Shown one piece after another: positions 44,301-50,300 of a DNA stretch of 64,000 nucleotides (the stretch's first letter is position 1; every line of letters starts with the position of its first letter). The stretch is from a phage: the sequence record PZ674595.1; one strand, 5' to 3'. Position numbers: made by a program.

Positions 44301-47300
44301 TTTACTCGCTATTCATGCCGCATGTTGAAGAGATTTGGCTCTCCCACATCGGCGTTGATGTGCCAAACGCCGATGCATTCTTCCCGGCAAGCATGATGCG
44401 TAATTTAGGCTTTGTGCCTGTTGAAACAGCTTATACCCAACGAGCCAGCGAGGAAGAGCCTGGCTTTTCGCAGATCGTATACAGAAGGTCGTAATGGATT
44501 ACCGGATTGGGATCACTGGTGCTCAGGGCAGTGGGAAAACAACCCTGGCTAAATATATCGACAAACATTACGGAATCCCTTACGTGGATGCTGGTGTCGG
44601 AAGTTTGATGAGCCGCCTCGGTGTTCGAGTAGGTGATTCTATGCCTCTATATGAGCGGCTTCAGATTCAAATGGAAATAGCAAAGCATATAGAGCTACTT
44701 ACGCGTGGTGTTGAAGGCTTTGTTATCGATCGCACACCTGCTGATGTTATGGCCTACACGTTGGATTTGGTCGGCCATACAAATGAAGATCGGTGTATTG
44801 AGTTAGCCCTCGATATCGAAAAGTTTTGCCACAAAACTGCTATTTCAAACTTTAACGCCATTGCTGGCTTACGCCCGGGAGTCGCTCTCTCAGAGCGAGA
44901 TTACTTGCGATCACAACGAGCATCATTAGACCGTCTGTATGTCGCTCGTATTGATGCGTTGATGTGCGGGGAACTGACAAAAATTCACCTGCATCCGCAA
45001 AGGGGAGATCTGCAAACCTTCGTCGTTTCCAACCGATATCGCACGGTTGAAGCAAGAGCCAGATCAGTGATGAGAATGCTAGATAACGCTGTAGAAAAGA
45101 TAGAAAACCGGTTCTGTGGCCGAGTGACCGTTCATTAGAAATTGTTCGCCTCTTCGACATTGCGACAATAAAACTCTCAAAATGGGTTAAGGATAAAAAA
45201 TGTTTAGTGAAATGTTGCTTGAAGATGAACTGGATCGGAAAACAACAGAGGCTTTGATTCGTGTAGCGGACGAACATTCCCGGTCGCTTATGAGCGATCG
45301 AGAGGCTCGTCTGGCTATTCGTGCCATATTCGAAACTGCGCAGGGGCTTGTTGGTACACAAGTGGGTGAAGCCATTAACATCGCCATGTCTCAGTTCAGT
45401 GAAGGCAGTAAAAAGCCTCTGTTTCCTATGCATTTGATGCTGGCTGGTGGCACGGTGCTTTATATCTCTGTTTGTCTGGATAGCAACCAAATCAATATTC
45501 TCAACACTGTGTCAGGTAAGTGGAAAGATCCGATTGTCTGTGAAACCAGTGAAGAAACTTTGAAAAAAGCGGCTCAATTTGTACGTAGCGCACTACTTAA
45601 GGGCGCTAAGAAGTTGTAAGGAGTTCTGATGACAACGATTGTTGCAGGCATCGATATCGAGTCTACGGGACTGGATTTCCTTGCTGGTCATAAAATTATT
45701 GAAATCGCAATTACCCGCTATGAACTGGAGACACAGAGACATATTGATAGTCTGGAGATGCGTTTTAACCCTCGCAGAAACATAGATCCGAAAGCTCAAG
45801 CCGTTCATGGCATTTCATTGGAACAGCTCGCAGCTGAACCTTTGTTGTCAAATCATGCCAGCGAAATTGGCGCTTATATGGGGGCATGTAGTGTGTGGGT
45901 TGCTCATAACGGCGAAGCATTTGATATACCATTTATTCGACACGAGTTTTCAGGGTATGGAGTAAGACTGCCAGAAGTTCCTGTTATAGATACTATGTTA
46001 TCGGGATTGTGGGCCACAGAAGACGGTAAACGTCCCCGCCTTGAAGAGTTGGCCTTCTCTCTTGGCTTTATATACGATCATGCCAAAGCACATAGTGCCT
46101 TATATGACACAAACTTAATGATGCAATGCTTCTTTAAGGCACGTAATAAGTACGGATTTTTTAAATTACCCTCTGAAATTGTGTAAAACAAAAGCCTACT
46201 TTAAAAAGTTTAAAGTAGGCTTTCTTTTAAAGAACAGTCGCCTTTCAATCATTTCCTGCCTGTATTTAATACTTTTCCGCCTGATAGGTTTAGTCAAAAT
46301 GTAGCCATCGAAACGCAAATGTAACCAAACAGAAGGAGACTTACATGAGTTCGGTTGAAAATGTAATGACAAATGATGATCTGGACGAGCTGACAGCCAT
46401 GTTGCAATCACTTGATGAACCAGTAAAAAAAGCTGCACAGGTTGAAAATACTGATGATATTGACGATCTGCTGCTCGGCCTAGATGCTGGCGTAGCCATG
46501 AGTTCTGATGATGTTGCCGAAGAACTGTTCAATGAAGAAAAAGCAGGTGATTTCAGCTCTGCTTTAAATGAGTTGGAGTTAGCGCATGAGCCTATAAACG
46601 TAATTAACGCTGAAAGTGTTGAAGCTGCCGAAAACGAGCCAGAACAATTGGGATTTATTGAGGTTGAAGAGTGTGTTGAGGTTAATGATGAATTAAAAGT
46701 TCAACAGTCAAATGATAGCAATACAAATAAAAAAGCTCGTACTGCAAGAGGTCCTCGTTTTACTTTAAGTGATAAAGATGATTCGTTTTTCAATAAAGCG
46801 GGCTTAGAAAAAGATATTTTCTTAGACGCTTACGATAACGCGCCTGTCAAAGCAAAGGATAAGATATTAAACCTTCTTAATTGGTTTAGCGGAGGTCCAG
46901 ATATTAGTGTTTACACGGTAATTTCCATGAGACACCTTCTCACAGAAAAGAAGGCTACAAGTAATAGTATTAAGATTGCTTTAATGAGCAATCCAGAAAA
47001 ACCGTATCCGCTTAACACTGCGTCAACTCAGGCTGGGCAAATGATGGCTGTATTTCCAGCGACAGGAATTGCCGTTAGAGACGGTGGAAATCTAACATTG
47101 AACGAAGAATCACCGATCGTTAAGAAGTTTGTCGCGGAGTACACTATTGGATGACGTTCCCCTACTGAAAATAAAGCCCATAGAGAGCTTTATAGTGCTG
47201 GGCAAGCCAATCACATACCCAGCACCACAAAAACGCGCCAGAGAGCTTCTCGTTTGCATTTCTGGCGCGTTTTATTTGATTGCCAGACATAAAATCAAAT

Positions 47301-50300
47301 GCAAAAATAGGTATATACTTACCTATCGAGAAAGAAGATGATTGCAGCCGAAAAAATCAAACAGCGAAAGCGCGACAACTCTCTTCGTGACCTCTGGAGA
47401 ACACCTGACTGGCTGTTTTCTGCCATTCAACGTTATCTTGGGGTGACATTTGATGTTGACGTTGCCTGCAACAAGGACAATGCAAAGCTGCCTAATTTCA
47501 TAGGCGTTGAGCGTGATGCTTTGAAATCTGAATGGGGACAGCCAGGTACAATTGCCTTCCTCAATCCCCCCTACTCCAAAATCTCCCCCTGGATTGATGC
47601 GGCTATACGTGAGCAGGCTCGCGGAGTTACAACAGTGATGCTAATTCCTCAATCCCTAGATACAAAGTGGTATGAGCGTGCAACAGAGTGTGCGAATGAG
47701 ACGATTATTCTGTCTGGTGGCCGCGTAGCGTTTGTCGAGCCTGACGTCAATCTGGGTCAGGTAGAAGTAAACATCAACCCAGGTGGCAGTATGCTCGTTG
47801 TTTTTCGAGGATTCTGTCAGGACGCTGGGCACTCTATAAGCAAGATCCCTTTGGACGTCATGAAAAGTCTGGGAGGGTATGATCCTGCGAATGTGATCAG
47901 GAAAAAAAGACCATCAAAGAAGGCTGCTTAGTTTGTTCTGGCGTCTGTAATTAGCCTGCTTCTGTATATATAAATAACTACATATTAATTATTAATATAC
48001 GGAAGCAGGCTGTTTTGTATCAGAGACTCCAGACCTGAACATCACTACAGAATCCACTAGAACCCCTTCCCAGACGCTTTAAAATCGATTTTATGAATCA
48101 CTTTAAGGAAACTAACATGTCATACCCGACTAATGTCGTTGCGCTCGTAGAGAGCGATTTTCTGGCCCAGGCCCGTGAAATGATGAAAGATCGCGAGCAG
48201 GCTTTCAACTTGTACGAATGGGCAATTAAGTGCTTGCATCTTGGGGAGCATCGCGAACTTGTTGAACAGCTTTTAGGTGAGTTGATCAACGAGGTGTTTG
48301 CCTTGAATGTTCAACTACATGGTCGAGAAAATAATCAATCGAAATGATAGATAAGTACAAACTATTCATAAAGTGAATTGTAAGTGCTAAGATCTGATAG
48401 TTTCCAGTCGTAGACTGGAGACTCGACCTGATGGGTGGGGGTAAGCGTCACTGGCGTCAGGTTTAAAAAAGCTCACTACCAGCGTAGAACCGGTGCCGTT
48501 TAGGTGTCGGGGAAGGGGGAACCAAAGTGAGCGGAGACAAGGGTCACTTTATGATTGTCGAGTCTGGGGTGTTTCGAGAGGTTGAATCCAGTACTCCCCT
48601 TCATAAAGTGTGGGAAGATCTCGGTTCTGGGGTGCTGTCATCCATAACTTCCCAAGTCTAAGCTGGCAGTAGACTTAGGCCATAACTTTTCAGGTTATGA
48701 AACGACCAGGTTGGTGAGGGATTTTTATACTCACCTCCCTGGGAGAGTATTACCTGAAAAGACAACCTCTCACTTCGTTCGAGGTGAACTTCACTCACTT
48801 CGTTCGTTCAGTTCAGGTTTATAAAAACCTGTTCTGGGAAGTAATTTGTTTATTTTAATAATTATTAACACGCACGCGTGTGCGCACGCGCGAGGAAAAA
48901 AAAATCGGCGCGGCGCTTGATTCAGGAGTTTATATGACGACGAAGACACCAGCCCGATCGCAAGAAAAAACTCGCAAAAAAGCCAAAAACAAAAATTCTC
49001 CCCGCACCAATTCCACAACGCCTGTCGTAGAGTTCAATCCCCAGCTTAAAACCGTGAAAATCTTCAGTGATGGCTCTTGCCTTAAAAATCCGGGTGGCCC
49101 GGGCGGTTACGGTATAGTTCTCCAGTATCGTGGTGAGGAACGCGAGTTCTCAGATGGTTTTCATAGCACCACCAATAACCGCATGGAGATGATGGGGGCA
49201 CTTATTGGGCTGGAGCGTTTGAAATATCCATGCAACGTTATTTTGCACTCTGATAGCCAGTATCTGAAAAACGGCATGACACAGTGGATGAAATGGTGGA
49301 AACGCAATGGATGGGTGACTTCTGACAAAAAACCGGTAAAGAATGTTGATCTGTGGAAGCGTCTGGATGAGGCTGCAAGTCGACATAATGTTCGCTGGAA
49401 GTGGGTTAAAGGTCACGCCGGGCATCGTGAAAATGAAATATGTGATCGACTCGCGAAGATCGCAGCTTTTTCCGCAGCAGATATGCCTCACAAGAAAGAT
49501 ATTGGTTTTGTTTACAACAAGAAGTAAGTAAGTGTTTACCTATCATTTTAAATCATGTATCTTATCAGCGTCAGGATGACAATGTGTCGGTAAGACACAG
49601 TTCCAGGATGGAACGAGAAAGGCGGCTGGCAATCGCCAGCCGCAACTCTTTCTGACACTGGATGGAGTCCACATGGCACGTCAAACCTATTTCACTTCTG
49701 CAACTAAACGTCCTCGTTCACTACGTCAAATTTTGGCCGAATTATTTAGCGGTCGTGTTCTGTCACGTCTTGATGAACTAGAGACTGCCGTTCGGTTGCT
49801 GAATGAACGTTTAGATAAGCAAGCGTCAGTTGTTGCGAACGTGGGGGCGATTGTTACCTCTGGTTCTTCACGCGAAGCGAAAAGTACACGGCCTTTAGTG
49901 AAGGAGAAAAACAACAAGGACAGTTCGAATGGAAAATTTTCAAAGAAAGAGGCTGAAACCAATGGCCTACGTTCTCATTATAGTTTCACTGGCGACGGTA
50001 GCCGTTCCAGCCGGCCAGAGCCTTTTGATGCCGGGTTCATCCATCACCACACCTCCGTCGACGACAATTACCACCACTCCAGTAGAGCGTCCTGTCACTC
50101 TGGATGGGATGACGGTGGATGCGATACCTCAAGTTCATCCAGTTACTCAGGATCATGCTGTGACTAAGGCGGTTGTATGAACTGGTTTTCAAATCACTTT
50201 GGAAAAACTTGGCTGGCGATTCTGGCTTTCATAGCTCTCATGGCCGCCGGTTGGGTATCGAACATTGTAAAACTCGTTTGCTCTGGTGATCTCCAGTTTC

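Follow-up and report, generated by a model that had tools for sequence, protein, structure and literature searches.

The window analysed here is the whole 64,000-nucleotide stretch of phage DNA in sequence record PZ674595.1. At 46345-47931 it encodes a highly acidic 269-residue protein followed by an orphan Dam-family N6-adenine methyltransferase. A first-pass annotation had proposed that the two are a possible anti-restriction pair, the acidic protein being reminiscent of DNA mimics. The reading favoured here, with a probability of about one half, is different: judged from its sequence and predicted fold, the acidic protein would be a lytic-cycle DNA-binding adaptor or regulator built on a winged helix, Dam a separate and ordinary orphan enzyme, and the two would form no DNA-mimic pair. 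Both genes belong to the part of an SSU5-like phage-plasmid that serves DNA metabolism in the lytic phase.

The acidic gene (WP_000099880.1; plus strand, 46345-47154) is preceded by a ribosome-binding site, AAGGAG, on the same strand at 46333-46338. Its product is modelled as three parts: a diverging, usually acidic and largely disordered N-terminal region with amphipathic motifs, a short basic linker and a strongly conserved winged helix. The protein as a whole contains 18.6% Asp+Glu (net charge -27, isoelectric point 4.27). Residues 1-118 (46345-46698, plus strand) hold 34 acidic residues (28.8%), 4 Lys and no Arg, giving a net charge of -30 and an isoelectric point of about 4; residues 136-269 are neutral. 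With the window's own proteins as background (13.4% Asp+Glu), the binomial probability of 34 acidic residues in 118 is 1e-5, and the earlier description of an Asp/Glu-dominated N-terminal half was accurate. A CobT-like open reading frame (ORF) of 702 residues starting at 14262 contains a 118-residue stretch with 38 Asp+Glu (net -29), which exceeds the acidic protein; the acidity of the 269-residue protein is therefore not unique in the window. The motif DD[LIV][DA][DE]L occurs in three in-frame copies (46373-46388, 46451-46466 and 46505-46520; repeat family D1) and, among all ORFs of the window, is confined to this one.

Conservation follows the same division. Among 20 aligned homologues, one short segment near the N-terminus, DDLDELTAMLQSLDE ... 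IDDLL.GLD, is kept; it gives way to a variable, indel-rich acidic stretch, the basic linker, and then about 135 C-terminal residues that are very strongly conserved. The linker, NTNKKARTARGPRFT (residues 126-140; 46720-46764, plus strand), includes R132, R138 and F139, all nearly invariant in alignments. The AlphaFold2 model, built from an alignment of only 20 sequences, gives predicted local distance difference test (pLDDT) values of 88-97 for the winged-helix domain (residues 140-269; 46762-47151, plus strand). Across residues 1-133 values are 28-77, with 50-77 for helices within residues 10-80 and less than 50 for residues 81-133. For the acidic region the prediction is of helices at low confidence, with disorder after them. 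The predicted C-terminal domain has the helix-strand-helix-helix-hairpin arrangement of a winged-helix fold, the hairpin forming the "wing". The invariant residues K169, K173 and N176 share one face of helix 168-181, and the invariant T225, Q229 and Q232 share one face of the predicted recognition helix 223-240. Structural matches are dominated by classical winged-helix regulators (Fur, MecI/BlaI, MarR and ArsR); the top matches listed are all winged-helix or other DNA-binding proteins, and no Ocr or ArdA entry is among them. Foldseek searches against the PDB and viral models returned weak winged-helix or uncharacterised matches only.

Sequence databases place the protein in a family that carries no functional name. 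It matches phrog_5235 over its full length (E 7.5e-150) and phrog_3932 over about 100 residues of the C-terminal domain (E 4e-15); both are labelled function unknown, and both are matched by 34/34 diverse family members. Against Pfam, which includes the Ocr and ArdA families, and against NCBIfam and PADLOC, the acidic protein matches no family at E<=0.01. The resemblance to DNA mimics noted earlier thus holds for the high net charge and does not extend to any Ocr, ArdA or other anti-restriction family in these three databases. With the Pfam threshold relaxed to E<=5, 30 diverse members produced scattered chance matches only, PDB sequence searches with two family profiles gave nothing or low-complexity noise, and a second word-indexed search for homologues yielded short fragments only. 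No publication on the acidic protein or Dam came up in literature searches by accession or locus tag.

The winged-helix family is large, uncharacterised, clade-defining and without a Pfam entry. An exhaustive search with a C-terminal-domain profile recovered 647 cluster representatives at E<=1e-3, nearly all of 220-330 residues with the winged-helix domain at the C-terminus. Ahead of the domain, 135 distant members show median values of 25% Asp+Glu and net charge -18, and this region is net negative in 93% of them. The remaining members (about 7%) have a non-acidic N-terminal region with a Lys/Ala/Pro-rich spacer and retain an LDxLLxxL-like motif, the sole N-terminal part conserved in distant members. 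The constant features are therefore this short motif and the winged-helix domain; acidity, though common, is not universal. Among deposited phages, the family is found only in siphophages of about 105-122 kb: SSU5-like phages, Pseudomonas Nickievirus, Stenotrophomonas BUCTxx99/ANB28, and Rhizobium RHEph10 and its relatives. Among assemblies, it occurs on Aeromonas and Vibrio contigs of about 104-117 kb. A strict linkage between the family and DnaE polymerase was considered and rejected: 1214 phage records have DnaE, against about 30 with the family.

Selection acts on both parts of the protein. Where the whole acidic protein is 53-60% identical, its C-terminal domain is 72-81% and Dam 83-87% identical. 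Over 384 pairs of SSU5-like sequences, the ratio of nonsynonymous to synonymous substitution rates (dN/dS) comes to 0.16 in the N-terminal region and to 0.10 in the C-terminal domain. Both parts are under purifying selection, and the acidic part is merely less constrained; the same 384 pairs give no diversifying or arms-race signature.

Gene order marks the acidic gene as part of the syntenic core of a broad phage clade. In the window the order is thyX, a polynucleotide kinase/phosphatase-like HAD-domain protein, DHFR, an AAA_28 kinase, a 139-residue hypothetical protein, a DnaQ-like exonuclease, the acidic gene, Dam, an 84-residue hypothetical protein and RNase H. The exonuclease (plus strand, 45629-46186; PF00929, E 6e-22) is predicted to be a 3'-5' enzyme of RNase_T fold. 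In all contexts examined, the acidic gene lies downstream of the DnaQ-like exonuclease. This order, at the end of a thymidylate synthase/DHFR/AAA_28 kinase block, is found in seven lineages: SSU5, Nickievirus phiK7B1, RHEph10, BUCTxx99, Aeromonas caviae, Vibrio maritimus and another contig of about 104 kb.

The association with Dam is far narrower. A PF05869 Dam follows the acidic gene at 78/78 enterobacterial loci with enough sequence, and in the enterobacterial group only; in six further lineages, which include those of Vibrio, Aeromonas, Pseudomonas, Stenotrophomonas and Rhizobium, no such gene was found close to the family member. On an Aeromonas caviae contig (L088, 3920-4828), an unrelated D12-class adenine methyltransferase (PF02086) lies upstream of the family member; there, this gene and an opposite-strand HTH_39 gene sit between the exonuclease and the family member. 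No methyltransferase of any kind was found near the family member in the five remaining lineages outside Enterobacteria and Aeromonas. Even within the enterobacterial relatives, insertions of 0.5-2 kb part the two genes in some cases: about 1.2 kb with opposite-strand ORFs in loci L046, L047 and L051-L053, and about 2 kb in L082 and L085. In relatives, the gap is an insertion hotspot for cargo genes (L046, 6523-7414, minus strand; L082, 6661-8219), the cargo comprising opposite-strand membrane-like proteins of 225 and 92 residues, and same-strand proteins of 144 residues (with a signal peptide) and 360 residues. The shared neighbourhood of the acidic gene and Dam would then reflect the module order of enterobacterial SSU5-like elements and no two-gene system.

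The acidic gene and Dam also look like separate transcription units, given a U-run hairpin between them, Dam's own promoter candidate and a conserved block before the acidic gene. Three terminator-like hairpins are found on the plus strand, each trailed by a U-run. The first, after the exonuclease at 46186-46228, resembles an intrinsic terminator (inverted repeat I2, 20-nt arms, 3-nt loop; RNA fold -17.9 kcal/mol, z -5.75) and is followed by UUUCUUUU; the transcription unit of the exonuclease would end here. The second, after the acidic gene at 47230-47273, has 13-nt perfect arms (inverted repeat I10; -26.2 kcal/mol, z -5.12) and is followed by UUUUAUUU; it would end the unit of the acidic gene. 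The third, after Dam at 47953-48011, has 17-nt arms that are 94% complementary (inverted repeat I4; -27.8 kcal/mol, z -6.35). A sigma-70-like promoter candidate for Dam, a consensus match only, lies at 47280-47308 on the plus strand (TTGCCA, 17-nt spacer, AAAAAT, TG extension). With a hairpin between the genes, a separate promoter candidate for Dam, insertions in relatives and no PF05869 gene near the homologue in other lineages, the locus does not look like a two-gene operon, and these same observations speak against the earlier proposal of a functional pair. A 70-residue ORF with a TTG start (47129-47341) was considered as a gene; it overlaps the inter-gene terminator and has no PHROG match, and is therefore probably no gene.

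Upstream of the acidic gene, a 49-nt block on the plus strand (46256-46304) is conserved across 8 divergent SSU5-like loci while its flanks vary, and is a putative promoter or operator. A consensus scan found no sigma-70-like match within it, and a position weight matrix of the block found no second strong site in the window. A layout of TTTTC-N2-CCT-N13-AWAAT within the block has similar counterparts upstream of the ORFs at 55787 (55710-55737) and 62346 (62288-62315). This pattern is possibly a phage-specific promoter class; it was derived post hoc from the same three sites, so that its enrichment is circular and not independent evidence. Copies of the 10-mer AAATGTARCC lie shortly before the acidic gene, but the window as a whole shows no enrichment of it. 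CTGCCTGTATTT has 15 matches against 5.4 expected, a mild enrichment scattered over both strands. No iterons, repeated binding site or origin features were found near the acidic gene, and Rfam and tRNA scans of the locus gave nothing relevant. In the transcriptome of the LF82/Cyrano lysogen, the acidic gene, Dam and the DUF4942 methyltransferase described below are all off the list of lysogeny-expressed genes (PMC9928086), which fits lytic-phase expression.

The second gene of the supposed pair is an orphan phage N6-adenine methyltransferase, as the first-pass annotation had stated. The 197-residue product (WP_000559568.1; plus strand, 47338-47931; phrog_111) matches PF05869 over profile positions 5-160 of 169 (E 2.5e-38; 131.8 bits, cut-off 28.1) and TIGR01712 phage_N6A_met (113.9 bits, cut-off 97.05), and PADLOC orphan-methyltransferase models also match. 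The sequence FLNPPYS spans residues 74-80, with the catalytic-type NPPY motif at N76-P-P-Y79 (codons 47563-47574). Homologues at 25-40% identity occur in 1294 phage records, including Stx-converting lambdoid, HP2 and T1-like phages; a search of the Dam protein sequence against the PDB found no relative. The Dam enzymes of T1, HP1/HP2 and Stx phages methylate GATC specifically. By analogy, the element's Dam most likely methylates GATC on replicating element DNA, which would shield that DNA from GATC-cutting enzymes and possibly also serve origin or packaging control. The window shows no depletion of GATC (267 sites, observed/expected 0.83). Non-specific enzymes of the Hia5 type are about 290 residues long with DPPY near residue 194, and an assignment of Dam to this type was rejected on size and motif order (PMC3299994). 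Self-methylation as restriction protection is a reasonable yet ordinary role; the element's Dam is routine and brings nothing new.

A second orphan methyltransferase lies at 52818-54503 on the plus strand (561 residues). It combines DUF4942 (E 1.7e-20) with a C-terminal N6-methyltransferase part bearing VMNPPY, and matches phrog_6263, "DNA methyltransferase". PADLOC mad2 and Type II methyltransferase models resemble only the methyltransferase part of this product. The annotation of the whole 110,879-bp plasmid NZ_OQ029475.1, to which the window corresponds, lists no restriction endonuclease, and the neighbours of Dam are hypothetical proteins, the exonuclease and RNase H, which does not describe a restriction-modification system. 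The earlier count of two orphan methyltransferases without a cognate restriction enzyme is borne out.

Beside repA, the segment 31598-32220 looks like a plasmid origin, with 21-bp iterons (CTCTCTATAGTGGAT-like) in clusters at 31598-31723 and 31999-32124. Each cluster is followed by GATC-containing repeats (6 GATC per 200 bp, 32001-32350) and a DnaA-box-like TGTGGATAA. In P1 oriR, Dam methylation acts in origin control, and this analogy suggests that the element's Dam may have a second role in control of the plasmid origin.

How the acidic protein might work can be outlined from these features. The winged helix and basic linker would bind phage DNA through the K169/K173/N176 and T225/Q229/Q232 faces, and the N-terminal motifs would bring in a protein partner, either replicative or transcriptional. 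By folding back, the acidic tail might also compete intramolecularly for the DNA-binding surface, as such tails do in sigma-70 region 1.1, T7 gp2.5 and HMGB1. DNA binding is suggested by the conserved helix faces and the adjacent basic linker, and by these features only. Several points weigh against this reading. No experiment or annotated homologue gives the family a function, both PHROG labels being "unknown function". With a net charge of +1 over residues 150-269, the winged-helix domain is close to neutral, and such domains can also make protein-protein contacts. Neither iterons nor a repeated binding site turned up in the gene's vicinity, and the upstream block is unique in the window and so points to no regulon. 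A looser functional link of the acidic gene with a methyltransferase might still exist, because Dam is adjacent at all 78 enterobacterial loci and a D12-class enzyme stands beside the Aeromonas homologue. As for Dam, the GATC specificity is drawn from characterised relatives that are only 31-40% identical (HP2 and Stx-phage homologues).

Two alternatives keep the winged helix as the central element and give it a definite task; both are doubtful. The acidic protein might be an activator of middle or late genes, a functional analogue of T4 MotA, in which the winged helix reads a promoter element and the acidic motifs touch host RNA polymerase. The prevalence of Fur, MecI/BlaI, MarR and ArsR among structural matches and the invariant T/Q/Q on the predicted recognition helix agree with this, and the repeated acidic-hydrophobic motifs look like activation motifs; the gene is nevertheless placed in a replication/nucleotide module, away from late genes. 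That the gene forms a transcription unit by itself, behind a conserved block, could mean autoregulation, but no repeated operator was found in the window, and the recurrence of the promoter-like pattern before two further ORFs suffers from the circularity described above. The protein might instead be a replisome or origin factor of lytic replication, that is, an origin-binding or DNA-tethered adaptor whose N-terminal motifs recruit helicase, polymerase or exonuclease. This is about as tentative as the activator role. Its invariant place after the DnaQ-like exonuclease, amid genes for DnaE, DnaB-like helicase, ligase, RNase H and nucleotide synthesis, speaks for such a factor, and multivalent short motifs would suit an oligomeric partner; no iterons or AT-rich origin-like features are found in or beside the gene. 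The family is limited to one clade with related DnaE (RHEph10 DnaE is 36% identical over its full length), yet more than 1,100 DnaE-encoding phage records are without it.

The anti-restriction reading holds that the acidic half is an Ocr/ArdA-like mimic that blocks Type I enzymes, in a set with Dam and the DUF4942 methyltransferase; it is very improbable. The charge density of Ocr and ArdA falls in a range comparable to that of residues 1-118, and the first 80 residues are predicted helical at low confidence; the acidic region is at the same time low-confidence or disordered, indel-rich and the least conserved part of the protein, the other half of which is a conserved winged-helix domain. The region is net negative in most distant members (93%), and in about 7% a Lys-rich region takes its place. 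Dam adjacency, constant in enterobacterial SSU5-like loci, is missing outside Enterobacteria; in the window the two genes have terminator-like hairpins of their own, and cargo insertions part them in some relatives. An unrelated adenine methyltransferase beside the Aeromonas homologue and the lack of a restriction enzyme in the element's annotation would suit an anti-restriction set, but a core syntenic gene of the replication/nucleotide module in a wide clade is unlike an accessory anti-defence gene. Neither the database searches at E<=0.01 nor the dN/dS values, which carry no diversifying signal, favour it. A published DefenseFinder analysis that covered 1227 contigs of the SSU5 group is reported to have found no anti-restriction system (10.1101/2025.09.12.675607). 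A broader speculation, only slightly less improbable, is that the family is a novel host-takeover or anti-defence class, in which a polyanionic DNA-like tail or multivalent LD-like motifs, tethered to phage DNA, decoy or recruit a conserved host machine that binds DNA, for instance a restriction complex, nucleoid protein, replisome or RNA polymerase. If true, this would account for the status of the gene as a hallmark of large siphophages and phage-plasmids in the SSU5/Nickievirus/RHEph10 clade.

The identity of the element is well anchored by comparison. Over the stretches compared (window 1-25000 and 45600-48400), the window is 100% identical to the Escherichia coli plasmid pc61-55 (NZ_OQ029475.1; 110,879 bp, IncFIB, non-mobilizable, ISEcp1-blaCTX-M-55); its orientation is the minus strand of that record and it spans the record's origin. 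The acidic gene/Dam locus is 100% identical to many Escherichia plasmids of about 107-126 kb and 97.5-99% identical to Escherichia phages CMS-2020a, Cyrano and PhiR41_1. From the identity to pc61-55 and to these phages, the element is therefore classed as an SSU5/pHCM2-like phage-plasmid. Such phage-plasmids, frequent in clinical E. coli, Salmonella, Shigella and Klebsiella, are carriers of resistance genes; the present element bears blaCTX-M-55. The DNA target and partner of the acidic protein, once worked out, would fill a gap in the lytic programme of these elements, and ruling the gene out as a recognisable anti-restriction gene halts the spread of a wrong annotation.

Other features of the window deserve brief mention. 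Three small acidic proteins are encoded at 28496-28921 (141 residues, DUF7238), 28977-29252 (91 residues, no family) and 62346-62654 (102 residues, DUF5983); none matches a known anti-restriction family, and by size alone they are more Ocr-like than the 269-residue protein. Between the 84-residue ORF and RNase H, about 530 bp (48348-48879) show G+C raised to 0.54 and no Rfam match; the matching region of Cyrano contains a 135-nt ORF, CYRAN_81, reported at 12-fold above background in lysogeny. A cluster of four tRNA genes (Asn-GTT, Tyr-GTA, Thr-TGT and Ser-TGA) lies on the plus strand at 9476-10128.

Set beside known systems, the acidic protein resembles T7 Ocr (gp0.3) and ArdA in being dense in Asp/Glu and strongly negative over about 120 residues, and in belonging to a mobile element that also self-methylates. 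Unlike Ocr and ArdA, its acidic part is low-confidence or disordered, variable in length and joined to a conserved winged helix, and it has no match to their sequence families; its gene is a core syntenic replication-module gene, not an accessory or early-entry gene, and some members of its family are non-acidic. Compared with Fur/PerR, BlaI/MecI, MarR/ArsR, E2F-DP and the globular domain of linker histone H5/H1, sequence identity is only 7-17%, and unlike these winged-helix proteins the acidic protein has an extra conserved N-terminal helix (168-181) and no metal-binding or dimerisation domain. Acidic regulatory tails are found in sigma-70 region 1.1, the delta subunit of Gram-positive RNA polymerase, T7 gp2.5, T4 gp32 and HMGB1. 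Like these, the acidic protein would combine a predicted nucleic-acid-binding domain with a flexible polyanionic segment, a possible DNA competitor or docking site; unlike them, it carries the acidic segment at the N-terminus and shares no homology, so that the analogy serves as a lead only. Dam, for its part, is like other orphan phage enzymes of PF05869/TIGR01712 in its full-length domain, its NPPY motif and its lack of a partner nuclease, and it differs from them in nothing of note; it resides on a phage-plasmid whose putative plasmid origin holds a GATC cluster.

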